Shown here in pieces: positions 14,053-60,633 of a DNA stretch of 64,000 bases. This DNA is from a virus, in the IMG/VR virus record IMGVR_UViG_3300048548_000653, positions 1 through 64,000 of that record, one strand, 5' to 3'. Position 1 is the first letter of the stretch. Each line of letters starts with the position of its first letter. The position numbers were made by a program, and so were the translations under genes. Below the pieces are notes generated by a model that saw only the letters and a program-made list of their open reading frames with translations, ran no database searches and was not told the DNA's origin.

Positions 14053-14095
14053 TGGTAAATACCTATAGAGCGTGAGGGCGCTTATTGGAGCAAGA

Positions 14096-14374
14096 ATGGA
14101 CTTTTTATCACTAGTAGCTGATGTTGGTTTTCCTATTGCCGCAGCGGGTGCCGCAGGGGGATTTGTTTTTTTAACACTGAAGTTTATACTAGCAGGTGTT
14201 ACTTCAAGTGTCACAACACTAAAAAATATAATTGGGCAACTGGATAATCGTGTCCAAACTATGAATAATGATCTTGTTAAGATTGATGCATTATTAAGTT
14301 ATGCATTAAACGTTAGACCAAATACAGATCGAATCGCAGCAAATGAAGGAAAAGATGATGCCAGACGGGACTGA
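14096..14374 (+). CDS. GFPI-type membrane plus coiled-coil protein (holin-like), paralog 1
   Basis: VGFPIAA TM segment; LDNRVQTMNNDL. Confidence 0.7.
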   Translation: MDFLSLVADVGFPIAAAGAAGGFVFLTLKFILAGVTSSVTTLKNIIGQLDNRVQTMNNDLVKIDALLSYALNVRPNTDRIAANEGKDDARRD

Positions 14375-14552
14375 TGACAAAGGCAAGTTAGAACTTGCAA
14401 TAAGAATTTTAGGAAACGAATTAGTTGCATTTAGAATGGACGTAGACGATTTCAAAATGAAATGGCTAGTTATGGGAGTAGTTGCTATAGTAGCACTAGG
14501 TTGGACTGCTGGAGAATTTGGGCCAGCACTAATTAGTATGTTCGGTGAATAA
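14355..14552 (+). CDS. small membrane protein
   Basis: GKLELAIRILGNEL followed by a TM segment. Confidence 0.6.
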   Translation: MMPDGTDDKGKLELAIRILGNELVAFRMDVDDFKMKWLVMGVVAIVALGWTAGEFGPALISMFGE

Positions 14553-14906
14553 ATGGATTTAGGCAAGGTAATAGCAGAGTATGGATTTCCTATTGTTGCA
14601 ACAATGGGTATGGCCTACTTTATATTCTTTATTTGGAAATGGGTTACAAATGAAATTGACGTAGTTATTGGTCAAGCAATGGGTACACTAATTAAACTTG
14701 TTGACCGTGTGCGTATGCTAGACAATGATCTTATCCGTTTAAACAGTAAACTAAGTATGGTTTTAGAATATCGTGCAAAACTTAATCCTCAACGTCAAGA
14801 CGAGTTACAACGTTTAGTTGATGAATACAAAACCCAAAGCAATGATTTTGATTCAGGTGGCAACAAAGAAACTAAAGAGCCGTTAAAAAAGAGAACGGCA
14901 AGGTGA
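14553..14906 (+). CDS. GFPI-type membrane plus coiled-coil protein, paralog 2
   Basis: YGFPIVA TM segment; LVDRVRMLDNDL. Confidence 0.7.
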   Translation: MDLGKVIAEYGFPIVATMGMAYFIFFIWKWVTNEIDVVIGQAMGTLIKLVDRVRMLDNDLIRLNSKLSMVLEYRAKLNPQRQDELQRLVDEYKTQSNDFDSGGNKETKEPLKKRTAR

Positions 14907-15028
14907 GCGGTCCTGTTCGCCAGTGTAAAACTTGCGGACACGATTGCCATTGCAATAAGCCGGATTGTTCTAAGTGTGTAAATGATGTTTGCTTCAGATG
15001 TGATTGCGAAGATAAAATAAAAAAATAA
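14903..15028 (+). CDS. Cys-rich metallothionein-like peptide, 41 aa (not in ORF track)
   Basis: GTG overlaps the upstream TGA; MSGPVRQCKTCGHDCHCNKPDCSKCVNDVCFRCDCEDKIKK. Confidence 0.6.
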   Translation: MSGPVRQCKTCGHDCHCNKPDCSKCVNDVCFRCDCEDKIKK

Positions 15029-15036
15029 GTAAATGT

Positions 15037-15309
15037 ATGAGATATTATATTGGACAATGCGAATATAAATGGTCGCACGTCAACAAGCCAATGGAAGCGA
15101 TGTGGATACAACGAGAAATTGGTGCAGATATTTTTAAAACAGTAGAAGAAAATGATTGGCAGTGGGTTTGGTTACGTACTAATAGTCAAACTTTACCAGA
15201 AGACATTTATTGTCGTTGTGACATTTACGTAGAAATACCAAATAGCAAACAGGGTACTTTGTTTATGTTAAAGTATCCTAGCGCAAAACTAGTGGAGAAA
15301 GCATTATGA
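15037..15309 (+). CDS. hypothetical protein
   Basis: ORF within operon. Confidence 0.6.
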   Translation: MRYYIGQCEYKWSHVNKPMEAMWIQREIGADIFKTVEENDWQWVWLRTNSQTLPEDIYCRCDIYVEIPNSKQGTLFMLKYPSAKLVEKAL

Positions 15310-15533
15310 TGTGGGTAGACTATAATATTGATAGTATTCCTGGCGGTAAAGGATTTAAGGTGAAGGGCGATTGGGAAGGTGAAGTAATGGGTGTAGCTCA
15401 AGATGGCACACAAAAAGATCATTGGTTATACAAGCCCGGCGATGTATTTGTTGTAAATGAAAGTGGTTGGTTAGTTAAGACTGACGAAGTGAATGCACTT
15501 CTTCTGAAACACGAGAGTACGAATTCTGAATAA
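15306..15533 (+). CDS. hypothetical protein
   Basis: Coupled ORF. Confidence 0.6.
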   Translation: MMWVDYNIDSIPGGKGFKVKGDWEGEVMGVAQDGTQKDHWLYKPGDVFVVNESGWLVKTDEVNALLLKHESTNSE

Positions 15534-16143
15534 CTTCGGCAACCTGATGTGATACCATAGTTTCATAATGCGTGTGTGCTAGTTCTACCTTATCCATATC
15601 ATTCCTTGATTGCATACTTTCAAGTGTAACAACGCCGTCATTAGGGCCTCCGTGATATGGTACCATTCCGCTAGTAGTAATTATCTGTGTCCAAGGAATG
15701 TTTAATTTTACATCAGTTGCATTTTTTATAGGCAAACTTCTACGACCTACATCTCTAAATAATGGATAACTAGGAACAATATATTTTGCCCAGTCTGCTG
15801 TCCAGCTTCCAGCAAACGGTGTGCTAATACTTACACCTCCTACTATTCTATGCATCTGTGTTAGGTGTAAAGCATATAATCCACCCATACTGTGTCCTAT
15901 GACAAAGTGTGGTCCTTTGTTTTGAATTTGTTCGCTTATCTTATCAAGATTATAGTAAAACTTATCAGCACTACTATAATTTACAAAAATTTCATTTGTA
16001 AATTTAGTTTTATTTCGTAAATAATTAAAACTTAAACTAGTTTGGTTTGCCCCGTGTATCCAAATAACATTTATGTCATCGGTTTTACGCTTTTCTTCAA
16101 CAAAAGGCTTATTAAAATAATTCTTGAACAATAAATGCAGCAT
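15475..16143 (-). CDS. alpha/beta hydrolase
   Basis: WIHGA, GHSMGG, STPFAGS, NDGVV, HYE. Confidence 0.85.
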   Translation of the reverse strand: MLHLLFKNYFNKPFVEEKRKTDDINVIWIHGANQTSLSFNYLRNKTKFTNEIFVNYSSADKFYYNLDKISEQIQNKGPHFVIGHSMGGLYALHLTQMHRIVGGVSISTPFAGSWTADWAKYIVPSYPLFRDVGRRSLPIKNATDVKLNIPWTQIITTSGMVPYHGGPNDGVVTLESMQSRNDMDKVELAHTHYETMVSHQVAEVIQNSYSRVSEEVHSLRQS

Positions 16144-16146
16144 ATA

Positions 16147-18192
16147 TTATTTACTTGTGGCCACAAAAACGCCATTCCAATCTGAAGGCAAGTCTTGTGT
16201 TTTCATATACTCGCATCGTTCAATCCACATATCATAATATTTTTCCATTCTATGGTCAAAATTAGTGTATATTGTTTTACATAAACGTATAGCTTCATCC
16301 CAGTCCTGTGCTTTATATGCAGTATGCATATCGGCGTGTCTACGTTGGGGAACAGACCAAGCAGGTGGACCGCCATCGAGTACTGTATATATACTAAGTC
16401 CTACACTTTTGCCTTTGACTTGCAAGTCATCTACTTTGAGATAGAAGAAATCGTCTTTTGTTTGCTCGTATGTAGATTCTCCAACAAGTAGTAGACATCC
16501 GTACTCTTTACACTTGCTTTCTACTCTTGCTGCGGTGCTGACAGCGTCTCCAAGGACATCATATGAATGACGTTTAGTACTTCCCATTTCACCAAGGTAA
16601 CCCAACCCTGTGTTGATACCAGCACCCATACCAACAGCAGGACGACCATCAGGTATAATAACTTTTTCATTAAATTTTTCCACTGCTTTAAGCATATCTA
16701 AGCCACACTGTACTGCTGAACGAGCGTGGTTAGGATCATCTATAGGCGCATTGTGTATGTGCATACTTGCATCGCCTATGTACTTGATAATCATTCCATC
16801 CATATCTAAAACAGGTTGTGTAATACTGTCCATATAGCCATTCATAATTTTAGTAAGACCTTTAACATCATCACCAAAAGATTCACCTAGTGGTGTAAAT
16901 CCACGCAAATCACTGAACACTATACTAACTTCTTTTTTCATTCCTTCTTTGATTAAAGCAGGATTTTCTTGTAACATACGCACAACTGTAGGAGATGCAT
17001 ATCCAGCAAACTGTTTTTTGATAGCGTTCTTTTGTAAAAACTCGTCAACAAACTTTAATACATAACGTATTAATCCTACAAGAATTAAAAATGCAGCAGG
17101 TAAAGCACCGTCTACGAGCAAGGCATACTGTGCAAAAATATAGTTGCTACCATAAATGCTGCCGCCAACTGCAAGCACAAAAAAGGCTATACCTACATAT
17201 GTCCATCGTGCGATTAAAATTAGTACTATACCTACTGCTATAAAGGCGGCTAACTCTGCCCACTGTTCTGCGTCTGGATGTCTGCTAATATTTGATTGAT
17301 TAAACACTGTTCCTAGCATTGCTGCTTGTACTTCGTGTGGAAATACGCTGCCTGCTGCTGTTGCTAGTGGCTGTGTAAGCCCTGCTGCTGTTGGTCCTAC
17401 AAACACTATACCGCCAGCAAAGTCATCTGGTAAGTCTACTGCGCTCACGCTTTTGCTGCGTTGGCTCCAGTCTATCCACACTTCGCCTGTAGGTGATGTT
17501 TGTATTATACCAAACTGCGGTATGCGTAGTTTGTCTACACCCATAGGTGATAGTTTGATTTGGAACGAAGGATCACCTGCTAGAACACGTAGCACTTCCA
17601 TTGTAACATTTGGATACAATGTGCCGCCGCTTTCAACCACTAAAGGTATTCGTCTTGTTACGCCGTCTACTTCTGCCCAACTGTTGGTTATTCCACTGCC
17701 TACTGCCGAGAATTCCACATCAGGTACATTAGCAATAATACCAGGAACACTAGGAATGGTACCAATATAATCGCTGTTAACAATAGTAGCACCAGGATTG
17801 ATCGCTTCATTCTTATTCTCCTCTGCACCCAACATTGTAACGATAACAGGCAATTGCTGCATAGTTAAGGCTAATGTAGCATCTTCACCTGATCTGTCTG
17901 TTTCCGACATCAACACATTGAACACCACTAGTCCAGCGCCTCTGGCATATAAATCCTCTATAAGGCTACCATAATCACCTCTCGGCCACGGCCATTGTCC
18001 GTATGCCTCTAAACTTGGTTCATCGATGTTCACTGTGTAAATGTTGTTTTCAACAGGTTGTTGATTTACAATAAGTGTGTCAAAGTATCGTAGTTTAAGA
18101 CTTTCTAAAAATGGTGGATTACTTTGCATTACCCACGCAAGAATGCCCAAAACTATAATGCTCCATATTGGGGAAAATATTAGTTTTTTCAT
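16147..18192 (-). CDS. CHASE2-domain class III adenylate/guanylate cyclase
   Basis: GQWPWPR, DGVTRRIPL, TM bundle, FSDLRGFT, KYIGDA, GAGINTG, YDVLGDAVSTAARVE, VKGK. Confidence 0.92.
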   Translation of the reverse strand: MKKLIFSPIWSIIVLGILAWVMQSNPPFLESLKLRYFDTLIVNQQPVENNIYTVNIDEPSLEAYGQWPWPRGDYGSLIEDLYARGAGLVVFNVLMSETDRSGEDATLALTMQQLPVIVTMLGAEENKNEAINPGATIVNSDYIGTIPSVPGIIANVPDVEFSAVGSGITNSWAEVDGVTRRIPLVVESGGTLYPNVTMEVLRVLAGDPSFQIKLSPMGVDKLRIPQFGIIQTSPTGEVWIDWSQRSKSVSAVDLPDDFAGGIVFVGPTAAGLTQPLATAAGSVFPHEVQAAMLGTVFNQSNISRHPDAEQWAELAAFIAVGIVLILIARWTYVGIAFFVLAVGGSIYGSNYIFAQYALLVDGALPAAFLILVGLIRYVLKFVDEFLQKNAIKKQFAGYASPTVVRMLQENPALIKEGMKKEVSIVFSDLRGFTPLGESFGDDVKGLTKIMNGYMDSITQPVLDMDGMIIKYIGDASMHIHNAPIDDPNHARSAVQCGLDMLKAVEKFNEKVIIPDGRPAVGMGAGINTGLGYLGEMGSTKRHSYDVLGDAVSTAARVESKCKEYGCLLLVGESTYEQTKDDFFYLKVDDLQVKGKSVGLSIYTVLDGGPPAWSVPQRRHADMHTAYKAQDWDEAIRLCKTIYTNFDHRMEKYYDMWIERCEYMKTQDLPSDWNGVFVATSK

Positions 18193-18359
18193 TTATTCAA
18201 ATCTATCCAAACACAATCTACAGTTTGATTTCTATCTGTCACAAGCACTGCTGCTTTACTTAATGCTGTAACACAATCTTCTTTGTCAGCATAATTAGCT
18301 AAGTGATAAAGTTCCATTTCCTGAGTGCTTGTTAGTGCTAACCATATTAGTGCCCACAT
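18189..18359 (-). CDS. small secreted two-Cys protein, 56 aa (not in ORF track)
   Basis: MWALIWLALTS...EDC...VDCVW; stop overlaps the cyclase ATG. Confidence 0.6.
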   Translation of the reverse strand: MWALIWLALTSTQEMELYHLANYADKEDCVTALSKAAVLVTDRNQTVDCVWIDLNK

Positions 18360-18523
18360 AATACTTTCTCCACTAGTGCTGACTTTAAATGCTCACCATT
18401 TTTAACTAGAAACTCTCTAATGTGTTTGTTGCTTGCGTCTGCTAATATCGACATTTCTTCTCCAACCATTACTGTATCTGCAGGTAATTTGTCAGCCACA
18501 GGTATTTCCTTTTCAAATTTCAT
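18347..18523 (-). CDS. hypothetical protein
   Basis: AAGGAGAGGGCA before the ATG. Confidence 0.55.
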   Translation of the reverse strand: MKFEKEIPVADKLPADTVMVGEEMSILADASNKHIREFLVKNGEHLKSALVEKVLCGH

Positions 18524-18543
18524 TGCCCTCTCCTTACGAGTAT

Positions 18544-18918
18544 TTACCAAGTTTTTTTATTTAACTTAGCTTTTAATGAATCCTGCTCTTCACGCTTCTT
18601 CCTGGCTTTCTCAACTTCTGCCATAGTATCTTCATACCAGTTTTCATTGTTTACTTTAGCAGTCTTTTTCCGTACTCTGGGTTGGGAATGTCCGGGTACT
18701 TCCAATATAGTACTGGGCTCTTTTTCTCTTTTGGTTTCAATTTGAATCCTTTGTGCTGGTGGCGGAAAATTGTTACGGAGTCGTTTGATTCGTTCTTGTA
18801 GTTCTTTTTGTTTTGACTCATAGTATCTTTCATACATTTTTTCCTTAAAACGTTTGTCTACCATTTCTATTATAAATGGTTGTAAAAAACGTGCAAGTAA
18901 ACGGCCTAACATTACCAA
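18544..18918 (-). CDS. hypothetical basic protein
   Basis: ORF within operon. Confidence 0.5.
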   Translation of the reverse strand: MVMLGRLLARFLQPFIIEMVDKRFKEKMYERYYESKQKELQERIKRLRNNFPPPAQRIQIETKREKEPSTILEVPGHSQPRVRKKTAKVNNENWYEDTMAEVEKARKKREEQDSLKAKLNKKTW

Positions 18919-19394
18919 CTTCCATTAATTTTTCCGATTATGTAAACTACAAACACAAGCAAACCTGCACCTATAATTGCTGCTATTGACCCAACTATCC
19001 ATTCTACAATAACTTGTTTGCGTTCTTCTTTTGCATAAACTTCGGCAGCACGTTTTTTACGCATTTCACCTTCAATGCGTACAATTTCGTCCCAAGCACT
19101 TGGACCGTAGTAAAAGCTGATGTGCGTTTTCATTTCTTCACGCATTTCTTTTGCTTTCTGTTTGTGTCCCCAAATTTCTAGAGCATTTTGCTCTATTTGA
19201 CTTGCGCCAAACAGTTTTTTGAACATTGGTGGATTTTGTGCTTGTTTGTGTGAAAAGTCTAAATCACTCATTGCGCCTGCCCACTGCGATAGTGTGCCTG
19301 CCATATCGTGCAGTTCTTTTCCGGTGTCTATTGCTGACTTGATTCCGCGATATGCTGCCGTGGCCAGACCAATAGCTGATACTGGATCTATCAT
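18912..19394 (-). CDS. C-terminally membrane-anchored coiled-coil phage protein
   Basis: MIDPVSAIG...; C-terminal TM segment. Confidence 0.7.
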   Translation of the reverse strand: MIDPVSAIGLATAAYRGIKSAIDTGKELHDMAGTLSQWAGAMSDLDFSHKQAQNPPMFKKLFGASQIEQNALEIWGHKQKAKEMREEMKTHISFYYGPSAWDEIVRIEGEMRKKRAAEVYAKEERKQVIVEWIVGSIAAIIGAGLLVFVVYIIGKINGSW

Positions 19395-19436
19395 TTGCCC
19401 TCATTTCTAGTAGATGCCCTCTACTAAAGGTATTTA

Positions 19437-21344
19437 TCAAAACTGGATTTTAAGACCAACACTTAACATATTGCTACTAGCGTCATCACTGATACTTCTT
19501 TGAAAGTCGCCTACAAACTTTACATTTTCTGTAACTTGCTTGTCAATGCCAATACCAATATTTGTAGTACCTTCGGTGGTTCTACTAATATGTGCTGTAC
19601 CAAAGTCGAGATCAAAATTAGCACCTAGTGTAGCATAACGATACGATTCATCAATTGCTTCGTGAACTATAGCACTTTGTACACTTCCTGTTTCTGTATA
19701 AGCATCTGTTGAACGCTTGCCTGCTACAATACCTAGCACTGGACGAACTTGTCCTGTGTTTGGTTCAACTTCTACATTTACCCAAGTGTCACTAATAGCA
19801 TATTCGCCTTGGTTAGTAAAGGTACCAATGTGTCTTTCATATGTAATATCTTGACTAGCACGATTGATTGTACCACGTACTGTGAATTCATCTAATGCTT
19901 TGCTTGCTCCTACGCCCATATGTAGAGTGGTCATATCACCTGTACTACAAGCGTCAGCTTTTGTAGTTATTCTGTTGATACCACCTTCAATGGTGATTAA
20001 ATCGTCTGTAGTGGTCGATCCACCGATACCTAACACACGACTTTCAGCACTACATCCGTGCCCTAAATCTGATGTAATACGGCTACCAGCTACATAATCA
20101 GCAAAACCCAAACTGTGTAAGTCTACAGCTTGTCCAATCTTTTTACCAGTGTCCATACGTCCTGTAAAGCTGCCTGGGTCAGTTACAGTTGATACTGCTA
20201 CTGAATCTGCTGCTGCGCTTGAAGTAAGTGTGCCATCAGTGTATGTATTAGTAACCATAGGTGTTGTAACTATTGTAGTAGTTTCTCTTGCTATAGTTTG
20301 CACGCCTGCTGCTGTTGTGCTATTGTGTGTAGTTTGTGACTGTGTTAGCACTGGCATACTAGTGTCTACAACAGTTTCAGTTGTAATCACTGGTTCTGCT
20401 GCTCCGGCTGCTGCGTCTGTAGCACTACCAACATCTTCTAATGTACCCCAACTACTGATGTCACCACCGCCACCTGCGCCTGCTGTAATAGCAGCATCGG
20501 CAGCATCAAACGCACTTGGTCCAAATATGTATGCGTAACTTGCTGTAAGTATATCGCCTGTGCTTACATCGGCCCAGTTCCAACTTAGTCCAATAGTGTT
20601 GTCGCCTGTGTTTGTGTTTGACTCTGAGTCAAAAGCATTTTCTGTATAAGCATCTGCCTCTGTTGACCAGCCTGTAATACCTGCATCAACGTTAGAGTCT
20701 GTAGAGTACAGTCCTAGGGCATAGCGTGATACTGTTGCTTCTGCAAATGCTACGTTACTATCTGGAATAACACCATAACCTAGCACGTTGTCTGTAGCAC
20801 TAGTATCGCCTGCTTCTGGCATAGCATCTGGATCAATAAAGCGTCCAAAGCTAAGTGCAGTAGCATCACTACCTGCTGTAATCTGTGTGCCAATCTCAAT
20901 GTGTTCTGATGTATCACCTAATGTATATGTGTTTTCTATTTCCCATCCACTGTGAGCAGAATTTGTACCAGTCCAAGTAAGTGAATTATCACCGTTTGTT
21001 AAACCATCTGCATCTACCCAAGTACTTCCGCCCTGGTTATTATTTTTGCTGTTAGTACCATCTATCTTAATAGCAAAGCCATCAAACGGTGAACCTGGTG
21101 TTAGGTAGTCGCCTTGTGCGCTATCTGCTGGAAATGTGCCTGAACCTGTGCTGTCAAACTGTAGTCCTGGACGAGTGCTTCCGCCTGATCCAAAAGTACC
21201 TGCTGTGCCATTCACTCCGGCTTTTACATAACTGTTTTCTAGTACACCCATACCTGTTGCTGTTGTACTAATGCTACTTGTATCTGCTAATGCTGTTGTA
21301 CCAAGTAGTGCTGCCATTACACTGGCAATCATTATTCTTTTCAT
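19437..21344 (-). CDS. autotransporter-like outer-membrane protein
   Basis: Signal peptide, Thr/Gly/Asp-rich passenger, Thr-rich linker, beta-barrel ending LSVGLKIQF. Confidence 0.7.
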   Translation of the reverse strand: MKRIMIASVMAALLGTTALADTSSISTTATGMGVLENSYVKAGVNGTAGTFGSGGSTRPGLQFDSTGSGTFPADSAQGDYLTPGSPFDGFAIKIDGTNSKNNNQGGSTWVDADGLTNGDNSLTWTGTNSAHSGWEIENTYTLGDTSEHIEIGTQITAGSDATALSFGRFIDPDAMPEAGDTSATDNVLGYGVIPDSNVAFAEATVSRYALGLYSTDSNVDAGITGWSTEADAYTENAFDSESNTNTGDNTIGLSWNWADVSTGDILTASYAYIFGPSAFDAADAAITAGAGGGGDISSWGTLEDVGSATDAAAGAAEPVITTETVVDTSMPVLTQSQTTHNSTTAAGVQTIARETTTIVTTPMVTNTYTDGTLTSSAAADSVAVSTVTDPGSFTGRMDTGKKIGQAVDLHSLGFADYVAGSRITSDLGHGCSAESRVLGIGGSTTTDDLITIEGGINRITTKADACSTGDMTTLHMGVGASKALDEFTVRGTINRASQDITYERHIGTFTNQGEYAISDTWVNVEVEPNTGQVRPVLGIVAGKRSTDAYTETGSVQSAIVHEAIDESYRYATLGANFDLDFGTAHISRTTEGTTNIGIGIDKQVTENVKFVGDFQRSISDDASSNMLSVGLKIQF

Positions 21345-21406
21345 TTTTTACCCTCTTGTTATGATGCCGGTTGCGCCCTCACGCCGCGGTCCATATTCTT
21401 TGATTG

Positions 21407-21754
21407 TTATTTAAGCATAATCTCCAATCCAAAAACTACGCCGATATCTTTACTTTCTATGCCTGGTGCTAAGAACATTCTCATTTTACCTACGTCATAT
21501 GTGCCTCTGACATACGGAGTAAGTGATCCATTGTTGTAGCCTGTTACAAGTGCAGCTTCAAAACCAAAGTTGTTTATTTCTTGTCTGTGTCCTGCATATA
21601 CACTTAAATTTTCTAAACTGTTATAATATGCGCCTGTGATAAAATTTTCGTGTTCAAACCTAATATGGGGATGTACACTATTGTAGTGATCGTCAAATCC
21701 AAGATGTAAACTTAAACCTAAACTTAATGTGAATGCTTCAATTATACTATTCAT
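21407..21754 (-). CDS. small outer-membrane beta-barrel protein
   Basis: LSLH, GAYYNS, SVYAG, LVTGY; alternating-strand pattern. Confidence 0.6.
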   Translation of the reverse strand: MNSIIEAFTLSLGLSLHLGFDDHYNSVHPHIRFEHENFITGAYYNSLENLSVYAGHRQEINNFGFEAALVTGYNNGSLTPYVRGTYDVGKMRMFLAPGIESKDIGVVFGLEIMLK

Positions 21755-22434
21755 TAGTTGTTCCTATTAACAGACAAACTACAACCATTACTGTTAGTAC
21801 AATATCCTGTGACGCTATAATGGCTAGATGCAGTTGAAACATTCTGAGTAAGTTCAAAGTTGTATGCACCGCCTGAATTTGTTAAGTCAACTTCTGCTTC
21901 TGCATATTCAGTTCCTCTTTGCATAACATCAACTGAGTGTCCGTCTCCTGTGAGTACAACATCTGCCCATTTTTGCCCACCATTGCCTCTTTGGTACAAG
22001 TTAACTTCGTTGTCATCACCTTGTATTTCTACAAAGCCATCGTGTCCTTGTTTTCCCATTTGCGTATGGTTAACTTCATTGTTATCACCATTTACTATAT
22101 TTGCAAGGTGATGTGCTGCGCCTCCACCACTTCTGTTTGTGTCTGTTTGCGCACTTCCCACTGTGTTTCCATCTCCAGTTATAGTCCAATATGCTTCGTG
22201 TCCACCTTCTTCGTCTATGTCAATAGTGCCATCTACGTGCATACCTTGACGAATTGTAATATTGTTAGAACCACCATTGCTGTTTAAACTAACATAGTTG
22301 TCCTCGCTACGCTGTTGCACTTCCAATTCAAGGTTGTCGCCTGCTTGGTTTATATAGATTTCGTTACTAAAAGCCACGTTGGGAAATATTAATACTATTC
22401 CCGCCGCCCACGCCAACACGGTAGCCGTATGCAT
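21754..22434 (-). CDS. curlin-like repeat secreted protein 2
   Basis: Signal peptide, NEIYINQAG, repeated GDxN-x-V-x-x-x-Q-x-G units. Confidence 0.7.
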   Translation of the reverse strand: MHTATVLAWAAGIVLIFPNVAFSNEIYINQAGDNLELEVQQRSEDNYVSLNSNGGSNNITIRQGMHVDGTIDIDEEGGHEAYWTITGDGNTVGSAQTDTNRSGGGAAHHLANIVNGDNNEVNHTQMGKQGHDGFVEIQGDDNEVNLYQRGNGGQKWADVVLTGDGHSVDVMQRGTEYAEAEVDLTNSGGAYNFELTQNVSTASSHYSVTGYCTNSNGCSLSVNRNN

Positions 22435-23485
22435 AGAAGCCCTCCTGTTCCATATCTATATTATATCCATAACCTTGATCCAATGTAAGTTGGAATATGT
22501 GTTGATCGCCTTCTTGCCTACGCACTATAAAATTAGGATAATTTTCATCGTAAAAAATATTAGTTTCAGGGTCTAGTCCTAAAAGCTTTACATCTAATAA
22601 TTCTTGGTTTTGTACAGAAAGTTCGTCAATCCACTGTGCTAGTATTTCTGCCAACTGTCTCTCCATTTCGTCAATCCACACAGGATTCAAGTAAGTCATA
22701 TTATCCAAATCTGTAACCCAAATACTTTTTATATTTTCAACTAAAGGATCTCTATCTAACTCGTCAAAATTTAAAAAGTCAATGTCTAATAAATTTGTAT
22801 TTGGATAGGTTTTGGTTATTTCTTCTGTGTAAGGTGAAACTTTACGTACAAGCAACATTGCTGTAAGCATATTCTCAGGTAAATCTAATATTACACTTGG
22901 GCCTGGAGTTGCACCTCTATGTGGCACCACAGTGGTTTGATAAGCTTGATTCATTATAATTTGACCAACATCTGATTCTACTGATATTTCTCCTATAACA
23001 CAAGAACCACTAGCGTCACAACTTGGTAACAGTGTTATCATTGATCCACCTACTTCGTCAATAATCATCATAAAGTCTGTGCCTCGCACGTTTATTGTAG
23101 CACTTGGTGTTCTTATATTCACTCTTTGTCTGCTATTCTTTGCTATTTGTCCTGATGCATATCTAACTGCTCCTAGTGTGGCTTTCATACTCAGCGCACC
23201 AGTTTTTGTGTTGGGATCATATATAAATTCGTCTATGGTCATACGTGAATGTTCTGTTACATCAACACGAGTGTCATCTATAAAGTCCATACGCATTGAA
23301 CCTTTGCCTGTAACGATCCTATCGTTCATTTCAAGACCAAGTCCTACTTCGCCAGTGTATTTTTCTGCTTCACGCTGAATTGTGCTAGAACCTTTATGTT
23401 CTGCTATTTTGCCAATATTTGCATACACTGGGGTTGTTAGTAATAATGCACTAATCAGACTGCGTAATATCAACGTCTTGTCCAT
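22367..23485 (-). CDS. secreted FecR-domain protein
   Basis: Signal peptide; MNDRIVTG, F.DDT, IDEFIYDP, RTPSATINVRGTDF. Confidence 0.85.
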   Translation of the reverse strand: MDKTLILRSLISALLLTTPVYANIGKIAEHKGSSTIQREAEKYTGEVGLGLEMNDRIVTGKGSMRMDFIDDTRVDVTEHSRMTIDEFIYDPNTKTGALSMKATLGAVRYASGQIAKNSRQRVNIRTPSATINVRGTDFMMIIDEVGGSMITLLPSCDASGSCVIGEISVESDVGQIIMNQAYQTTVVPHRGATPGPSVILDLPENMLTAMLLVRKVSPYTEEITKTYPNTNLLDIDFLNFDELDRDPLVENIKSIWVTDLDNMTYLNPVWIDEMERQLAEILAQWIDELSVQNQELLDVKLLGLDPETNIFYDENYPNFIVRRQEGDQHIFQLTLDQGYGYNIDMEQEGFYAYGYRVGVGGGNSINISQRGF

Positions 23486-24188
23486 CGCCTGAGAATGTAG
23501 CATCTACTGTGTTATCTTTTACACCACTTTGTTTAATTTTGTAGTTGCTGCCGCCGCCGGTGATATCTAGTGTTACACTGTGTCCTGCGCTGTCTCCATC
23601 GCCGTCTTGATCTATTTCGACTAACACACCGCCTTGTTCTGTTGTGTAAGTTGATGATGAGTCTGAGGTTGTAGCTGACGAAAGTGTAGAATTATTGTCT
23701 ATTGTAACATTGACTACCGCACTTGTGCCGTCAACTTCTGTGATCAATATGCTTCCGTCGCCCTCTACTGTAAAATCAATTTGCGCTCCGTCTGCATCTG
23801 CTGTTTCACCAATTTCTAAATAATACTTGTTGGTATCTCCTGTAGTTGCAATATTCAGTGTGACGTTTTCACAGTTTACACCTGAGGTATTATCGCAGAC
23901 TAAATCAACAAAATTGTTGTTGCCTGTAAAAGTCCAAGTACCAGTATATGTATTACCTTTTATTTTTGCATCAATTATGTTTGCATTACCTGTTTGAGTA
24001 ATACTAAAAGTCATATCATCGCCATCAAGCATTGCGTCGGTGGTTGAATCACCAAATTCGTTGTCAGTCCCATCTTGTGTAATATCTAAATCAAGGGTGT
24101 CACCTATTTGTGTAATGTAAATCTCGTTTGCATTTGCTGCACTTACGAGAACCAATGATAGGATGAACCCATATAATATTGCCCTCAT
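23451..24188 (-). CDS. curlin-like repeat secreted protein 1
   Basis: GGAGGTG RBS; signal peptide; NEIYITQIGD.LDLDITQDG.DN repeats. Confidence 0.75.
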   Translation of the reverse strand: MRAILYGFILSLVLVSAANANEIYITQIGDTLDLDITQDGTDNEFGDSTTDAMLDGDDMTFSITQTGNANIIDAKIKGNTYTGTWTFTGNNNFVDLVCDNTSGVNCENVTLNIATTGDTNKYYLEIGETADADGAQIDFTVEGDGSILITEVDGTSAVVNVTIDNNSTLSSATTSDSSSTYTTEQGGVLVEIDQDGDGDSAGHSVTLDITGGGSNYKIKQSGVKDNTVDATFSGDGQDVDITQSD

Positions 24189-24218
24189 ATTTTTCCACCT
24201 CCGGCTTTTAGCCAAATA

Positions 24219-24278
24219 TATTTATAATATGTTGATATTATTATAAATACAATGTTATTTAGTGTAAATATTTTTACA
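24219..24278. promoter_or_regulatory. back-to-back TATAAATA late promoters plus TGTAAA-N4-TTTACA palindrome
   Basis: 11-bp inverted repeat at 24219-24229/24239-24249; palindrome at 24263-24278. Confidence 0.55.
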
Positions 24279-24294
24279 GTAAAGCGGGTATATA

Positions 24295-24564
24295 ATGAAA
24301 CTAAATACAGTTATGATGGCATTAAAACAAGCAGAAAAAAATCATAAAGAACAGCAGGCCTTTTGGGATGTATTTGACGAGATATGGCCGCCCGAAGAAA
24401 GACAAGATGATAAATGTTTGCACCAAGAAGTAGACGATTTTATAATAGATAGGATTGCAGCGGCTCTAAAAGAGTGCAATCACAATCGCACACACACTGC
24501 TGATAAGTTAGGAATAAAAAGAGAAACCTTATTGGCTAAGATGAAGAAGTACTGTCTTGTTTAA
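24295..24564 (+). CDS. Fis-type (HTH_8) DNA-binding protein
   Basis: IAAALKECNHNRTHTADKLGIKRETLLAKMKKY. Confidence 0.85.
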   Translation: MKLNTVMMALKQAEKNHKEQQAFWDVFDEIWPPEERQDDKCLHQEVDDFIIDRIAAALKECNHNRTHTADKLGIKRETLLAKMKKYCLV

Positions 24565-25336
24565 ATTTCCATAGATTTTGTGCAGCACCTTGATAAATCA
24601 TTTCAATTACTGCGGCCTCGATGGCTTGACGCACGGCATAATTTGATGCTTCATTTACACTATATCCAGTTTCGATTTCTAATGCTTGTGTACCTAAATC
24701 AAAAAACTTGAATGCGTTTGCACCTTGTCTGTAACTAGCAATTGATTTTTCTGCTGCTACGCTTACCAATACACGACCTGTGCTTACGCTTACAAGACGC
24801 ATTGCAACTGTCACAGTATCAACTCTATATTCTACCGCAGTACCGATTCCCATATACATAGCACCATTGCCGCCTGTAGAAATATTACTGTCATATCCTA
24901 TAATACCGCCTTCTAGTAATATACCTGCAAATTTCATAGGTGATAGAGAAACTTCTTTTTCACCATAGTTTTCCCTTGTATTGCGTATAACCTGACGTTC
25001 TTTGATCACGTGATCCATTCCACCTCGTTCTACAACTTCAAACCAAGTACCGTTGCCTGCTTGCAATAGTGCATCTATTACCCAAACTTCTGCACCTTGT
25101 GTAACTGCACTACTCAAGTTTGAAATACTTTCAGAGGGTTTACGTTGCCCTGTTTTATCTGCAAACTCATAAACACCTACTGTCATTACAGGACCATCCA
25201 ATGGCTGAAGTTTATTTAATTCTTCTACCATTGGATTATCCTGCACTTTTGCAGCATTTTGCAGCATAGTTGGAACTTCTCCTTGTGTTGCACAACCTGC
25301 AACAAATAACATTGCTAATATTGCTATAAATTTCAA
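24536..25336 (-). CDS. csgG: CsgG/HfaB-family curli secretion lipoprotein
   Basis: Lipobox VAGC, VYEFADKTGQRKP, AVTQGA, WFEVVER, EGGIIGYD, YRVDTVTV.MRLVSV.TG. Confidence 0.9.
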   Translation of the reverse strand: MKFIAILAMLFVAGCATQGEVPTMLQNAAKVQDNPMVEELNKLQPLDGPVMTVGVYEFADKTGQRKPSESISNLSSAVTQGAEVWVIDALLQAGNGTWFEVVERGGMDHVIKERQVIRNTRENYGEKEVSLSPMKFAGILLEGGIIGYDSNISTGGNGAMYMGIGTAVEYRVDTVTVAMRLVSVSTGRVLVSVAAEKSIASYRQGANAFKFFDLGTQALEIETGYSVNEASNYAVRQAIEAAVIEMIYQGAAQNLWKFKQDSTSSS

Positions 25337-30118: not shown

Positions 30119-30382
30119 TTAATAACCTAACTGATCTTTTAATTTTATTTGATTTCTTTTGAATCGTCTAATGGCAGCTTTTTTTGCAAGTCTTTTTTTA
30201 GTGCCTTTACTTTCAAAATATTCACGCTTTCTTAGCTCTTGCATTAATCCATCTTCTGAGATCTTTTTCTTGAGCTTTCGCATTGCTTTGGTTACATCGT
30301 TGTTTATTACATTAACTTGTAAACCTTGTTTGTTCCAGTCGTCGTTATGTTTTTTTCGATTGTTTTTCATTTTGTCCTTCAT
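30119..30382 (-). CDS. rpsU: ribosomal protein bS21
   Basis: V.V.NNDV.KAMRKLKKK...ELRKREYFE. Confidence 0.88.
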   Translation of the reverse strand: MKDKMKNNRKKHNDDWNKQGLQVNVINNDVTKAMRKLKKKISEDGLMQELRKREYFESKGTKKRLAKKAAIRRFKRNQIKLKDQLGY

Positions 30383-34109: not shown

Positions 34110-34586
34110 TTACTTTCCTTCCATAAGTTTTTCAGCTTCCTCGACTGCTTCTTTACTTACCACACCTTCACGCAACAGTTTCTCTCTATTGGCCATATGC
34201 TTCATTTGTATTTCTTCTTTACTACCGCCAAAGTATGCAACGCAATGTCCTTCTGCTATCATAATATCAGTCACTAAGTCGCCATTTGGTGCTCTAAAGT
34301 CACCCAAGATGCGGCCAAACTTGCCCTTCATATCTTCGCCGTGTTTGTTTTCAGTTGTGATAAGTTTTCCACCATTCTCAAGTAATTCTTTTAATCTTTT
34401 CTTTGCAGCCAGTCCAAAAACTTTTTCTACTTTATCACTAGTGCGTGATTCTGGGGTATCAATGCCCATAATTCTTACACGCTCATCTTTTAACCATACG
34501 TTGAATCCTAGGTCAATGTCTACGTCTACTGTATCACCGTCAACGCATTTAAGTAGTATTACGTCATATTCATTTTGTGTTTGCAT
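34110..34586 (-). CDS. thermonuclease (SNase-like)
   Basis: VDGDTVD, RVRIMGIDTPESRT, GKFGRILG. Confidence 0.9.
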   Translation of the reverse strand: MQTQNEYDVILLKCVDGDTVDVDIDLGFNVWLKDERVRIMGIDTPESRTSDKVEKVFGLAAKKRLKELLENGGKLITTENKHGEDMKGKFGRILGDFRAPNGDLVTDIMIAEGHCVAYFGGSKEEIQMKHMANREKLLREGVVSKEAVEEAEKLMEGK

Positions 34587-34620
34587 TTTTTGCCCTCTCT
34601 AAATAATGTGCCCGTATTAT

Positions 34621-35175
34621 TTATGGAGAAGTATTCTGATGCCACACTGCTAATTCAAATATTTGTATATCTTGGGGTTGATCTAACACCCATTTAACCG
34701 TTTCTGCAACTTTACTAGGCGGCATTTTCTTAATATGCCTGAGAAACTTTATCATATCAGTGTCTGTCCAACCAATAATTAAATTTGTTACTCTACAATT
34801 AAAAGTACTAACACCGGCTCTCATACGTAATGTTTTGGCTTTAACATTTTCATCTAGTTCTTGCTTGTTTTTAACGTAGTTACCAAACCCTGCTTGGAAT
34901 TCTGGATATTTACTAGAACTATTCATATTGATAATAGTTTTATGTTTATATTTCCAATCTTCCCAAAACAAATCAAATAATTTTGTTTGATAATTTTGAA
35001 ACTGTGCATTGTTTATAAAAACATCTGCATCTTTTGCAAGCTCATATATTGCATCAGGTTCATTTATGTTATAACCATTTGTTCTACTAAAACCAACAAT
35101 TTCGTGTTCATTCTCTAACAGTTGTTTAATTGCATTGCCAATTCCTTTGGTATGGCCTGTTAATGCAATCTTCAC
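34621..35175 (-). CDS. short-chain dehydrogenase/reductase
   Basis: TGHTKGIG, FINNA, YVKNK. Confidence 0.85.
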   Translation of the reverse strand: MKIALTGHTKGIGNAIKQLLENEHEIVGFSRTNGYNINEPDAIYELAKDADVFINNAQFQNYQTKLFDLFWEDWKYKHKTIINMNSSSKYPEFQAGFGNYVKNKQELDENVKAKTLRMRAGVSTFNCRVTNLIIGWTDTDMIKFLRHIKKMPPSKVAETVKWVLDQPQDIQIFELAVWHQNTSP

Positions 35176-37766: not shown

Positions 37767-37911
37767 AATAATTTCCTTCTTTTTTGTTATGTGTTCATAA
37801 AGCAAAGGGCAAGTTCGACGCTTGCCCTTTCGCTGTGTTATTTATTACAAGCGTTGCTGTGAGTGCAACATTTTGTTATAATCTGAAATTTATGTTGTTT
37901 TTATGCAACAT

Positions 37912-43715: not shown

Positions 43716-44003
43716 TGGAATGAGGCCCGTTCTGTTGCTAGGTGGAACCCATACCCCGCATACCTAATTAGGCTGCAATTGCCATTGCTGGCGCACGATT
43801 GTCATTTGCAATTGTGAATGTTGACCAATAACGCAGTCATCCGGTAAACTCCACTTCACTTTCACACCTGTCGATCCTAGTTCAGCCCCATCATAATTAC
43901 TCTATGCCGTAAATTTGTAGTTTTTACGCTACAAAGTAATTATGGTGGAGCTGCCGGGTACTGCCCCCGGGTCCAGTATGCGTTCACGTTGCTTCAACGT
44001 CTA
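43716..44003 (-). ncRNA. ssrA: permuted two-piece tmRNA, alphaproteobacterial type
   Basis: Acceptor piece ...GACCCGGGGGCAGTACCCGGCAGCTCCACCA (ends 43943), then spacer, then GGGGCTGAACTAGGATCGAC (starts 43889); tag ANDNRAPAMAIAA* at 43809-43768; outer ends approximate. Confidence 0.92.
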
Positions 44004-44010
44004 CAGTCTA

Positions 44011-44039
44011 TTTATAACATAGATTTAAGCTTGTGTCAA
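44011..44039 (-). promoter_or_regulatory. ssrA promoter (sigma70 -10 overlapping TATAAATA)
   Basis: TTGACA-N17-TATAAATA. Confidence 0.7.
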
Positions 44040-44047
44040 CAGACAAG

Positions 44048-51152: not shown

Positions 51153-51153
51153 A

Positions 51154-52764: not shown

Positions 52765-52791
52765 TCTTAACTCCTGAATTATTGTTAGTAT

Positions 52792-54343: not shown

Positions 54344-54357
54344 ACGTTATGATAACA

Positions 54358-55835: not shown

Positions 55836-55869
55836 TGGTGATTTCCTATGTTATTAAAAGTATTTATCT

Positions 55870-56999: not shown

Positions 57000-57000
57000 T

Positions 57001-57231: not shown

Positions 57232-57307
57232 TCATTACTCCAATATATTTACGACAGGAAATAGCCTTTTCGTTACCTAATAAATGCCTAAGTGTTCTAC
57301 CACTGTA

Positions 57308-57679: not shown

Positions 57680-58226
57680 CATAGCCGTATTCAATAATAT
57701 CCTTTAGGAATATATCCCAAACCAAGTCTCGTAATTCTGGTGTATATAAATCTTTATAATTGTGTTCTCTAGATAAGTTTAACACAGGCAAGGGCTTATT
57801 GCAACCTAATAGTTCTTGTATCTGTACAAAGTCATCTTCCAGTGTTTCGTATTTGAGTATAATAGTATGTGTACCAAACCAACTGTGCTGTGGAGTATGC
57901 AATCTATACCAATTACGAGCCCAAAGTAAAAAGGGTTGATAACTTAAATTAGTTTCAAAGTTGCTTACTCTACTCAACAACCACTGCTTGAAGTTTGTTC
58001 TGCCGCCGTCGCTGAACATATACCAACTTGCCATCCTTGCCCAAGGATTGCGTACAACACCAAATGTTTTTTGTGTGCGTGGAAAGTATTCGTTGACTTC
58101 TACAATGTGTCCGTGCTTACGGCCTTCAATAGTGGTAAAGTTTGTGTCTAGCCAATTCGAAATACTGGTGCCAGCAGTTTTAGGATTATGTATAAATGTG
58201 ACTTGCTCATTAGGTAGGTGTCGCAT
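57672..58226 (-). CDS. sulfotransferase family 2 protein
   Basis: FIHNPKTAGTS, VRNPW.R.ASWY, KYETL, D...YGY. Confidence 0.85.
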   Translation of the reverse strand: MRHLPNEQVTFIHNPKTAGTSISNWLDTNFTTIEGRKHGHIVEVNEYFPRTQKTFGVVRNPWARMASWYMFSDGGRTNFKQWLLSRVSNFETNLSYQPFLLWARNWYRLHTPQHSWFGTHTIILKYETLEDDFVQIQELLGCNKPLPVLNLSREHNYKDLYTPELRDLVWDIFLKDIIEYGYAY

Positions 58227-58242
58227 ACTATATTTACAGTCA

Positions 58243-58274
58243 CAAAAAAAGGCCCACTTAAAAAGTGAGCCTTA
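58243..58274 (-). terminator. intrinsic terminator
   Basis: AAGGCTCACTT-TTT-AAGTGGGCCTTTTTTT. Confidence 0.7.
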
Positions 58275-58297
58275 ATTATTATTAAGTTAATTAAAAC

Positions 58298-58645
58298 TTA
58301 TGCTGCGTCGAACGCATCCAAATCACGGATAAGAACAACTTGTGATGATAAATCAATACCGTCTACTGTTCCTAATGCTTGGTGTCTAGCTGTCAAAGAC
58401 GCTGCATCTGAATGATGTCCGTCGATGATTGCAAAGATTTTACCTGCTGTACCTGTTGATTTGTACATTAATGGTGAAAACTCACGTACGATTGTTTCAA
58501 TCGCTCCGCCAATTCCGTCTTTTGCTGCTAATGAAGCACCAGCGTCGATTTCGATCGCTGTAATTTGTGATGTGCTGTACTGTTCGCCGTGATCATAACC
58601 TGATCCTGTTCCCGCTACTGGGTTTACTCTTGTGAAAGCTGCCAT
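58298..58645 (-). CDS. small virion structural protein
   Basis: Late promoter, strong RBS, own terminator; MAAFTRVN. Confidence 0.6.
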   Translation of the reverse strand: MAAFTRVNPVAGTGSGYDHGEQYSTSQITAIEIDAGASLAAKDGIGGAIETIVREFSPLMYKSTGTAGKIFAIIDGHHSDAASLTARHQALGTVDGIDLSSQVVLIRDLDAFDAA

Positions 58646-58728
58646 TTTAATCTCCTATGTTCTCTAATGACCACTCCATTCTCTATGGAGTTTCTTATAT
58701 TGTATTTAGTATATTGAGATAAAAACGG

Positions 58729-59598
58729 TTACTTACGGGCTTTTTTTGCACGATTATGCAATATTTTAAGTTGATCTATATATGCAGGACCTGCTTTTAC
58801 AATGTCGTGAACTATCATAACCAACGGAAAGTACGCTGATGCAATGCTTGCAGGTATTGTTTGACCTTTGCTGATCATATTTAAAAAACGACTTACAAAA
58901 GGTAAACTGTTTACTGGCAGTATCAATCTATACATTTGTACGTCTGCCATACCCATTTTATCCGGTGTGCTTATTTTTGGTTCTGGATCAGTAGCATTAA
59001 AATCTTCTAAGTTATTATCACCAGCAAACTTGCTGAACATAGGCATAACATCACTATCACTTAATTTACTTCTAGCCGCAAACAATAAACGTGTAATGGT
59101 TGTTTTTCTTTCTGCTTGTGTGTCAGTGTTAAATGTATTCAGCCTTCTACGTATTTCTCTATATTGAGGATTAGATATATCTAAATCGGATTCTATCAAT
59201 GCTAATGCTTTAATGTCTTCCGGAGTAACACTATCGCCGCTTGCAAGACGTCTAAGGAAGCCATTTAGTTTTCCTACACTAATGACTGTAGTTTTTCTTA
59301 ATTTTGCAGCTGAATCAAAATCTTTTAATTTTTTTAGAGCAGATTCATCACCCATTATAAAATAATAAAGATTGAACAAATCTGTGCTGTCAATTCTAAA
59401 ACGATTATATTCTCTAAACATTACAGTTTTGTATGCATATTTCATAGCATCAGTTTTATGTTTGCGATAAAAACGCATAGCTTGTAAACAAAGGATTGTG
59501 AGGTATGCTTTTTCTTTACAGTCAGTGTAAGATAGCAAACGCTGATTTCTTGCATCACGAGTCATTCTTGACTCCTGTAAATCTTTTATGAAATTCAT
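58729..59598 (-). CDS. hypothetical late protein
   Basis: MNFIKDLQESRM leader. Confidence 0.65.
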   Translation of the reverse strand: MNFIKDLQESRMTRDARNQRLLSYTDCKEKAYLTILCLQAMRFYRKHKTDAMKYAYKTVMFREYNRFRIDSTDLFNLYYFIMGDESALKKLKDFDSAAKLRKTTVISVGKLNGFLRRLASGDSVTPEDIKALALIESDLDISNPQYREIRRRLNTFNTDTQAERKTTITRLLFAARSKLSDSDVMPMFSKFAGDNNLEDFNATDPEPKISTPDKMGMADVQMYRLILPVNSLPFVSRFLNMISKGQTIPASIASAYFPLVMIVHDIVKAGPAYIDQLKILHNRAKKARK

Positions 59599-59849
59599 CT
59601 TCGCTTGCTTTCTTTTATTTTTTCTACACCAACTTTAAATTTTTTACTACTACCAGCTTTGATGCTATTGATCAATCTTCTTTCAAGATCAATAGCTTGC
59701 TCAGTATCATATATTTTATGCACTTGTTCAAGTAGATTTACTGCACTATCAATAATGTTAGTGCCTGTAGTCTGAATAAAATCATCACTGCGTTCTTCAA
59801 CACGTAGATTACTTAATTCTTCTAATATACTTCTAGTGCGTTTTCTCAT
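59595..59849 (-). CDS. hypothetical phage protein
   Basis: RTRSILEEL; TAAATA upstream. Confidence 0.65.
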   Translation of the reverse strand: MRKRTRSILEELSNLRVEERSDDFIQTTGTNIIDSAVNLLEQVHKIYDTEQAIDLERRLINSIKAGSSKKFKVGVEKIKESKRR

Positions 59850-59856
59850 ACTGTAT

Positions 59857-60615
59857 TTATATCATTTTTTCTATGTTGGCAATATAGTTGACCATACTAT
59901 GATCAGAGAAGCTATCAATGCCACCTTGCTTGATACCCATCCACATACCACGCCAGCGATCTTTTGTACGCTGCCAAGTTGTGAGTTTACGCTCTAAGCC
60001 GTGTGCATTCATATAATGTTCTGTGCCGTGATGCACATAACCCATAGCTCTTAATGGCACTCTAGTAACAATATCATTATTGTTTACCCAACGATGATGT
60101 GCTACATTTAAACTACGACAGTAACCACGCCATCCTACTCTTGGCGAACCGTATGTGTACACTTCCTGTATATCTGGCATATCAACATCGCAGTTGCATC
60201 TACTAGCCATAATAGTTGTCATAGCAGCACCTAAACTATGTCCGCAAAACCAAATGTTCTTGTCTCGGTTAGTTTTACGTGCTAGGTCTTCAGATACCAT
60301 AGGCCATAGCTCATCTACTTCTGCTTTGAATCCTCTGTGTACTCTACTGACTGTTTCTGCTATCACTGGTGTTGCTTTCAAATCAGCCTTAATATCGTTA
60401 AACTCACTTGGTTGCGTTCCTCTACAAGCAATTACTAAATCTATCTTATTCATAAATCGATATGCCTGTGCTCCGTCTTTGTTGTAAAATTCTACTGTAG
60501 TAAACCCTAATTTTCTAACATCTTTTTTTACTTGGTCTATATTGTCATTGTATGCTATACTTGCTAGTTTTGCAAATAGTAAACTTCGTTCCATAAATTT
60601 CATTTCTGTAATCAT
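59857..60615 (-). CDS. class 3 lipase
   Basis: ACRGT, VHRGF, GHSLGAA, YTYGSPRVG, NNDIVTRVP, DHSM. Confidence 0.92.
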   Translation of the reverse strand: MITEMKFMERSLLFAKLASIAYNDNIDQVKKDVRKLGFTTVEFYNKDGAQAYRFMNKIDLVIACRGTQPSEFNDIKADLKATPVIAETVSRVHRGFKAEVDELWPMVSEDLARKTNRDKNIWFCGHSLGAAMTTIMASRCNCDVDMPDIQEVYTYGSPRVGWRGYCRSLNVAHHRWVNNNDIVTRVPLRAMGYVHHGTEHYMNAHGLERKLTTWQRTKDRWRGMWMGIKQGGIDSFSDHSMVNYIANIEKMI

Positions 60616-60633
60616 TTTGCCCTCCTAAATAAA

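Follow-up and report, generated by a model that had tools for sequence, protein, structure and literature searches.

GAGGGC words in the mRNA leaders of an uncultured marine phage: candidate targets of a multi-loop antisense RNA

The six-letter word GAGGGC recurs at ribosome-binding sites and in leader hairpins of an uncultured giant marine phage, which raises the question of what might read it. The DNA concerned, hereafter the window, is the whole 64-kb stretch analyzed here, namely, the first 64 kb of the 76,977-bp viral contig G000 (IMG/VR record IMGVR_UViG_3300048548_000653). A sequence-only reading of the window had proposed that a phage RNA-binding protein or small RNA (sRNA) coregulates envelope and lytic genes through this word, and all the sites that it named are in place. 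We propose that the GAGGGC words are tags, targeted by a multi-loop antisense RNA that is probably repressive. We hold this view with rather better than even confidence, a level set by a regulator unseen in this phage and by a reading made from sequence alone.

The first indication of function is where the tags lie. Counting both strands of the contig, 8 of 14 GAGGGC copies fall in sense 5′ leaders (positions −70 to −1), compared with 17.3% of other GAGGNN words (P = 9e-4) and with 6.3% by area (P = 5e-7). Note that gene calls were heuristic, combining open reading frames (ORFs) with a Shine-Dalgarno (SD) score, and that the GAGGNN comparison has the same bias. The eight leader copies comprise three in hairpins (14074, 19416, and 21375) and five at ribosome-binding sites, 1 to 5 nucleotides (nt) upstream of the starts at 18523, 19394, 22434, 34586, and 60615; at each of these starts the GAGG core stands 3 to 7 nt upstream of ATG, the spacing of an SD sequence. 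Copies at 23760 and 47992, within coding sequence, look like chance occurrences.

Conservation carries the argument further. Many uncultured relatives are present in IMG/VR, including large fragments (G001, G002, and G004 to G009) of up to 357 kb, one of which is rated complete. In G004 (237 kb), 22 of 50 GAGGGC copies lie within 18 nt of a start, versus 9.9% for other GAGGNN words (P = 5e-10). Tag status in G000 tracks that of the orthologues in G001, G002, and G004 (counts 8/4/4/122; odds ratio, 61; P = 8e-8). Beyond the conserved tags, the leaders are often unrelated in sequence; those of a lipase gene, a nuclease gene, and a gene for a 92-amino-acid (92-aa) protein differ in architecture, and all keep GAGGGC. 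Among orthologues, the same word is sometimes the SD and sometimes a loop. These patterns support a function for GAGGGC in leaders, maintained by selection and not explained by its being an SD variant; the hairpins, too, are kept in orthologous leaders. The proposal of a common posttranscriptional control of the gene set is likewise supported. Its supposed restriction to envelope and lytic genes did not hold up, as most tagged genes in the relatives belong to immediate-early units around the complementary array described below. The tag is not confined to early genes either, a smaller conserved set of leaders of the TAAATA type being tagged in the window.

TAAATA occurs up to 90 nt upstream of 37 of the 135 called genes, a virion structural gene and a tail-spike-like gene among them, while the ribonucleotide reductase genes have TTGACA/TATAAT-type promoters instead. 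In the relatives, a purine peak lies 6 to 7 nt downstream of TAAATA. We infer that TAAATA is a late-type promoter box of the T4 kind, in which case the leader hairpins at 14067 and 19428 would begin at approximately +1. By the same token, eight genes in which TAAATA is followed after 4 to 5 nt by ATG, with no SD, would have leaderless messages (starts 2386, 8582, 12328, 32937, 44447, 45245, 58226, and 59849 [−]).

This leader class helps to weigh a cis-only account, in which GAGGGC is a strong SD variant and the 5′ hairpins stabilize late messages against 5′-end-dependent decay. Such an account fits the canonical GAGG core at normal spacing, the hairpins that start at the predicted +1, 6 to 7 nt after TAAATA, and the use of one word as SD or loop among orthologues; moreover, a 5′ stem-loop combined with a ribosome site is a known stabilizer of mRNA, as in the ompA and aprE leaders and in STAB-SD-type elements. 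However, the canonical 3′ end of 16S rRNA gains no pairing from the GC extension; for that, U and G would have to stand at the corresponding positions of the tail. In addition, among 1,417 distinct leaders of relatives (two gene families used to fetch the relatives having been dropped), GAGGGC is present in 9 of 177 TAAATA leaders and in 9 of 1240 others (P = 1e-4), and GAGG is extended by GC in 9 of 45 TAAATA leaders but rarely elsewhere (9/260). Ordinary SD hexamers showed no split between TAAATA and other leaders, and the tie of GAGGGC to TAAATA leaders is therefore not the behavior of a general SD variant. We regard the cis-only account as unlikely.

What could read the word emerged from the relatives. 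A pattern search of G004 revealed five GCCCTC copies within 120 nt, beginning at the stop codon of a 368-aa ORF, the putative early ATPase gene. A terminator closes the array; beyond it come a TTGACA-N17-TATACT promoter and then a ribosome site with GAGGGCA. Surveying 38 distinct regions downstream of putative ATPase orthologues, we found 2 to 5 GCCCTC copies in 35 and GCCCTCACGY in 31. The gene after the array carries GAGGGC in 25 of these regions, and GAGGGC, AGGGCA, or GAGGGT in 32. The arrays start at the putative ATPase stop codon and end in a stem plus U-run terminator, suggesting cotranscription with that gene. Thus, the sRNA option of the sequence-only reading, an RNA containing UGCCCUC, finds its counterpart in hairpin arrays of related phages with (U)GCCCUC loops.

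Array loops are of three recurring types (GUGCCCUC, CCGCCCUCA, and CGUAUGCCCUCACGC), and stems of at least 6 bp surround 36% of array GCCCTC copies versus 10.5% of control positions. A single alignment of all array hairpins was rejected, since loop lengths and registers differ; covariation was instead counted in seven type-A hairpins chosen for their common register. Among these, 96% of cells pair, compared with 37 to 48% when the partner is slid, and compensatory changes are seen in six of eight pairs around a nearly invariant 15-nt loop. A search of three array loci against Rfam returned no RNA family at E ≤ 1, one chance snoRNA match apart. The hairpins also speak to the idea that GAGGGC/GCCCTC is a double-stranded transcription factor site and the array a cluster of such sites. 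While the word does occur in both orientations and near promoters, its leader copies are all on the sense strand with SD-like spacing to ATG, and the location of the array copies, in the loops of hairpins whose stems covary, favors RNA; a DNA site of this kind appears scarcely credible.

A further argument for an antisense RNA comes from the match between tags and loops. Window positions 14067 to 14079 (AGAGCGUGAGGGC) are the exact 13-nt complement of GCCCUCACGCUCU, a sequence that 16 of the 33 type-A array hairpins in relatives contain. A 12-mer, GCGTGAGGGCGC, occurs at 14070-14081(+) and again at 21373-21384(−), against a chance expectation of 0, and this second copy is complementary to the type-A loop over 10 contiguous nt. 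Complements to array loops extend over 8 nt in the 19394 and 22434 leaders (the former with UGAGGGCA at its tag) and over 7 nt in the 18523, 34586, and 60615 leaders; with reversed loops as a control, 7 nt was reached in two leaders only. The same relation is seen within single genomes, where the leader of a 632-aa gene of G004 has a 13-nt complement to its own array and that of a 160-aa gene of G002 an 11-nt complement. In each of four genomes, the 10-mer occurs exactly twice, always at these places and nowhere else. As the array loops are complementary to the mRNA word, RNA-RNA pairing is implied.

A protein reader would be the other obvious solution. An RNA-binding protein (CsrA-, RegA-, or Com-like, from phage or host, possibly dimeric) might recognize GAGGGC in the loop and at the ribosome site, a layout which recurs across several gene families, and most of the genome is unseen. 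The sequence-only reading had likewise suggested a CsrA- or RegA-like protein, a proposal that finds no backing here: the contig, itself 24% of the genome, has no match to CsrA (PF02599) or RegA (PF01818), and GGA, the core of CsrA sites, is missing from GAGGGC(A). The analysis turned up no protein candidate, and the complementary RNA array is a simpler reader; we thus judge a protein reader very unlikely.

Another candidate is the ribosome itself. The phage encodes its own ribosomal protein bS21 at 30119-30370(−) (PF01165, 53 bits), as do seven of nine large relatives, and bS21 adjoins the anti-SD helix, such that the tag might suit ribosomes carrying phage bS21 and promote preferential initiation on tagged messages. 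Yet no correlation of bS21 with the tags could be shown: neither of the two S21-less fragments is a whole genome, and G009, which is one of the two, has 16 tags. The Methylophilales myophage Melnitz has S21, and its first 50 kb contain two GAGGGC words, neither before a start codon. bS21 is not known to read bases 3′ of the SD. This account has, in our estimation, a slim prospect at best.

The relative G006 provides an informative exception. All that is left of its decayed array is a GCCCUC loop and a CCCCUC loop, and seven of its eight early leaders carry an ordinary SD (such as UAGGAGA) and a different hairpin, the tag being present in one of eight. Thus, tags and array go together. The G006 early leaders (L235, G006:124119-144118) have a common module of their own, a GAGC-GAACA-GCUC hairpin followed by ACUCC and then an ordinary SD, which may be a self-masking ribosome site replacing the tag system. 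This joint loss, the complementary arrays, and the 10- to 13-nt matches make antisense pairing the best-supported reading over all rivals; the exact complementarity, the long matches, and the joint loss are left unexplained by the cis-only, DNA-site, protein, and bS21 accounts, as well as by chance as the origin of the tags.

How might the system work? On the antisense reading, GAGGGC(A) words would be address tags on phage mRNAs that pair in vivo with a phage-encoded RNA, each tag either covering the SD core (GAGG) or occupying the loop of a short hairpin with which the transcript is predicted to begin. The regulator would be the tail of the putative early ATPase transcript, with two to five adjacent hairpins exposing (U)GCCCUC loops. 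Array loops would bind ribosome-site tags via 6 to 8 bp, and the GCCCUCACGCUCU hairpin would engage 5′ leader hairpins over 10 to 13 bp, with loop-loop kissing as the first contact. Where a leader has two tags, a single RNA molecule could grip both, using two of its loops. Most likely, the pairing would exclude the 30S subunit and repress translation, silencing tagged early genes and restraining a few genes of the late type, namely, those for a membrane protein, the curli cluster, the nuclease, and the lipase.

A more elaborate version, which we advance only tentatively and consider less probable than its negation, is an RNA-only translational timer. Here, the array RNA would originate in the tail of an early message, from which it is cut or read, and the 13-nt hairpins would be high-affinity kissing partners or decoys that time the escape of late genes from repression. 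Its targets would be immediate-early genes plus chosen late envelope, nuclease, and lipase genes, addressed via a private extension of the ribosome site.

Several observations weigh against antisense control. The contig, estimated at 24% of the genome, contains neither a GCCCUC-loop hairpin nor the putative ATPase gene. GAGGGC is not enriched across the window (11 observed versus 8.4 ± 2.8 expected), the signal being positional; for ribosome sites taken by themselves, the count in the contig is borderline (4/14 versus 11.5%, P = 0.07). RNAduplex energies of all G000 leaders with the G004 and G002 arrays fell in the same range as those with a reversed-array control, and the longest contiguous loop match was therefore used in place of whole-array duplex energies. 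Two of four leader hairpins are no more stable than shuffled sequence, these being the composite hairpin at 21367-21389 (z = −0.3) and the palindrome at 34600-34623, which is weak as RNA (−2.7 kcal/mol, z = −0.4). The covariation count comes from a selected subset of hairpins, and the conservation of tags among orthologues partly reflects shared descent. Lastly, repression is the likeliest sign of the effect by analogy, and preferring it over activation or stabilization is a guess.

Does this phage itself carry an array? We infer a regulator for it solely from synteny and from the relatives: going by the gene order in G002 and G004, an array is expected 7 to 11 kb beyond position 76,977. Two loci found as relatives of the contig's last gene end 2.7 and 3.5 kb upstream of that gene, i.e., 2.5 and 3.3 kb past the contig end. 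The relative that is 91% identical in amino acid sequence over the contig's last gene extends 3.3 kb past the contig end and enters early units; there, a TTGACT-N17-TATATT promoter is followed by AGGGCA, and a GAGGGT tag lies at its end. Searching with an exact word from the end of G000 retrieved two short contigs that lengthen it by just 376 and 647 nt; the 2-kb overlap of one of these with G000 is 100% identical. For a second clade contig, L239, a similar word from its end matched L239 alone among viral contigs and no metagenome contig. Four independent clade contigs (G000, G001, L239, and L240) stop within ~3.5 kb of the same gene. Such breaks are probably caused by repeated early promoter-leader cassettes that break assembly.

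Turning to the individual leaders, the first is that of the 92-aa membrane-protein gene 14096-14374(+). A TAAATA late-type box, its promoter role being putative, lies at 14056-14061(+), and from the purine spacing in the relatives, the predicted +1 (~14067-14068) coincides with the foot of the 5′ leader hairpin at 14067-14083(+), which contains AGAGCGUGAGGGC (14067-14079) and the first 12-mer copy. When 14064-14098 is folded (−7.7 kcal/mol, z = −2.0), GAGG is in the loop, and a separate GGAG SD lies between the hairpin and the ATG at 14096. GAGGGC is kept in all three orthologue leaders, whose architectures differ. Contrary to the proposal that both 12-mer copies directly follow TAAATA, the copy at 21373 is 23 nt downstream of the box. 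That second copy is part of the composite leader hairpin at 21367-21389(−), upstream of the 635-aa signal-peptide gene 19437-21344(−). The element of this leader is also present in the G001 and G004 orthologue leaders, as is the GAGGGU variant tag at the ribosome-binding site (21350-21355, −).

A two-site layout is seen in the leader of the 160-aa gene 18912-19394(−). Its 5′ hairpin at 19406-19428(−), with a 9-bp stem, a GGGCA loop, and GAGGGC at 19416-19421, lies 2 nt downstream of TAAATA 19431-19436 and folds at −9.3 kcal/mol (z = −2.7; 19392-19429 folded). A second GAGGGC(A) occupies the ribosome-binding site at 19397-19402(−), so that the hairpin and the additional tag noted previously are both real features of this leader. 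In G001, the hairpin is kept with one stem base changed from A-U to G-U; other relatives have a different hairpin with UGAGGG in its loop at this site, and (A)AGGGCA is kept at the ribosome-site position. Leaders that combine a hairpin site in the 5′ untranslated region (UTR) with a ribosome site thus belong to both 18912-19394 and 19437-21344, and they recur among the orthologues of these genes.

Further tags lie at or next to start codons. The 58-aa gene 18347-18523(−) has GAGGGC(A) at 18525-18530(−), 10 nt after TAAATA 18541-18546. Of the two curlin-repeat genes, 21754-22434(−) (Curlin_rpt, E = 4e-7) has GAGGGC 4 nt before its ATG (22439-22444, −), an addition to the sites previously listed, and 23451-24188(−) carries the word over codons 1 to 3 (24181-24186, −); this latter tag is kept in the G001 orthologue and lies at the ribosome-binding site in the G004 orthologue. 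The SNase-type nuclease gene 34110-34586(−) has GAGGGC(A) at its ribosome-binding site (34592-34597, −), and ~20 of ~60 distinct leaders of its orthologues contain GAGGGC in unrelated upstream sequence. The palindrome TAAATAAT-ACGGGCAC-ATTATTTA upstream of it (34600-34623, −) was confirmed as a sequence, is kept in close relatives, and reads TAAATA on both strands. The TAAATA box is part of the palindrome, so a transcript starting downstream of the box probably could not form it, and a promoter region is more likely here than the RNA hairpin it was taken for. Similarly, the class-3 lipase gene 59857-60615(−) has GAGGGC(A) within AGGAGGGC at its ribosome-binding site (60619-60624, −), a tag kept in the G001 and G004 orthologues downstream of unrelated TAAATA leaders.

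An early-type tagged unit is represented by gene 11485-11883(−), where positions 11887-11939(−) comprise a sigma70-type promoter (TTGACA 11934-11939, TATATT 11911-11916) and a GAGGGU tag at 11887-11892; its G002 orthologue has AGGGCA at the tag position. Weaker AGGGCA or GAGGGT copies had been listed before 3569, 9285, 11883, and 21344, and all were recovered: AGGGCA cores lie at 3575-3580(−), 5 nt upstream of the start at 3569, and, with long spacing, at 9295-9300(−), 9 nt upstream of the start at 9285. An AGGGUA core at 2168-2173(−) precedes the start at 2162. Hydrophobic N termini are found in 5 of 10 tagged window genes versus 19 of 129 others, a modest association (P = 0.014); in G004, no such link to the tag was seen. 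The AGGGCA/UGCCCU stems of two terminator-like hairpins, at 37806-37830 and 62631-62652, hold the tag word in the stem rather than the loop, which may be coincidence.

As for the phage itself, the contig has a G+C content of 36.8%, and CheckV rates it 24% complete, corresponding to a genome of ~320 to 350 kb. The window encodes two curlin-repeat proteins, a FecR-like protein, the SNase-type nuclease, and the class-3 lipase. RNA gene searches showed an array of four tRNA genes at 2413-2739(−) and a permuted two-piece transfer-messenger RNA (tmRNA) of the alphaproteobacterial type at 43719-44043(−) (Rfam RF01849, 138 bits), from which the host is probably an alphaproteobacterium. Short assembled pieces, some identical to window positions 13000 to 25000, are present in marine RNA-seq libraries of several studies; 15 runs were available as assembled contigs, 4 of which were compared with this region, giving patchy cover without 5′ ends or strand. 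The identical pieces mark the phage as marine and possibly transcribed there, with DNA carry-over as the alternative.

Among isolates, Melnitz was the only DNA match, over a 0.66-kb stretch at 77.7% identity in a cyclase-domain gene. The corresponding segment of the window, 16379-17043, lies inside gene 16147-18192(−), and Melnitz is otherwise unrelated at the DNA level, which suggests gene exchange. With GAGGGC never before a start codon in the first 50 kb checked, Melnitz is apparently not suitable as a model. With the Melnitz protein for the T4 gp33-type coactivator as the query, five fragments gave no match, an uninformative negative.

Our literature search found no description of a GAGGGC/GCCCUC tag-loop system in phages, but several known systems resemble it in part. 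In T4, RegA and RegB shut off early messages at their ribosome sites. The tags would share with them a class-wide control of early mRNAs via a ribosome-site word, the differences being that RegA and RegB are proteins and that the tags mark late-type leaders too. The promoter-early stem-loop (PeSL) cassettes of T4-type phages, repeated promoter-leader modules before early genes, have been described as recombination modules, whereas the tags here would be targets of a complementary RNA. CsrA/RsmA and their CsrB-type sponges offer a similar geometry, with one site in a loop and one overlapping the SD, and a multi-hairpin RNA with a repeated loop word; however, that system uses a protein as its reader and GGA as its word, while the loops here are the complement of the mRNA word. 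If our reading is correct, uncultured marine phages of a large and abundant group govern whole classes of genes with a private tag at the ribosome site and an antisense RNA that they encode themselves, a task that falls to proteins (RegA and RegB) in T4. The tag-loop pair would be simple and portable, and its specificity could be tested by compensatory mutation.

Closer in principle are sRNAs with C-rich loops. Staphylococcus aureus RNAIII, whose targets include rot and coa, pairs C-rich loops with G-rich SD regions, and its grip on the rot mRNA involves a pair of loop-loop contacts, with the 5′ UTR and with the ribosome-binding site (PMC2837412). The 19394 and 21344 leaders have their two candidate sites in the same arrangement. 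RNAIII is nevertheless an unrelated RNA of an unrelated organism, and RNase III cleavage and repression have been shown for RNAIII. The Cuckoo RNAs of Alphaproteobacteria (Cuckoo/CcsR; RSs0680, alpha-r14) are alike in build and genomic setting: two to four adjacent hairpins with variable stems and an invariant, C-rich anti-SD loop, cotranscribed downstream of a gene and ending in a terminator hairpin (PMC4615179). The relatives' arrays match this plan in their two to five adjacent hairpins with covarying stems, a feature absent from the present contig, and in their place behind a gene with a terminator hairpin at the far end; they depart from it in their loops, which read (U)GCCCUC rather than the Cuckoo motif CCUCCUCCC. 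Further differences are that the array is phage encoded, that its predicted targets bear a private GC extension of the SD core, and that one array hairpin has a 10- to 13-nt match to leader hairpins. Going by these features, the array would work like the Cuckoo RNAs and is not a member of their family; it would then add a phage example to the C-rich-loop sRNAs typified by Cuckoo and RNAIII.

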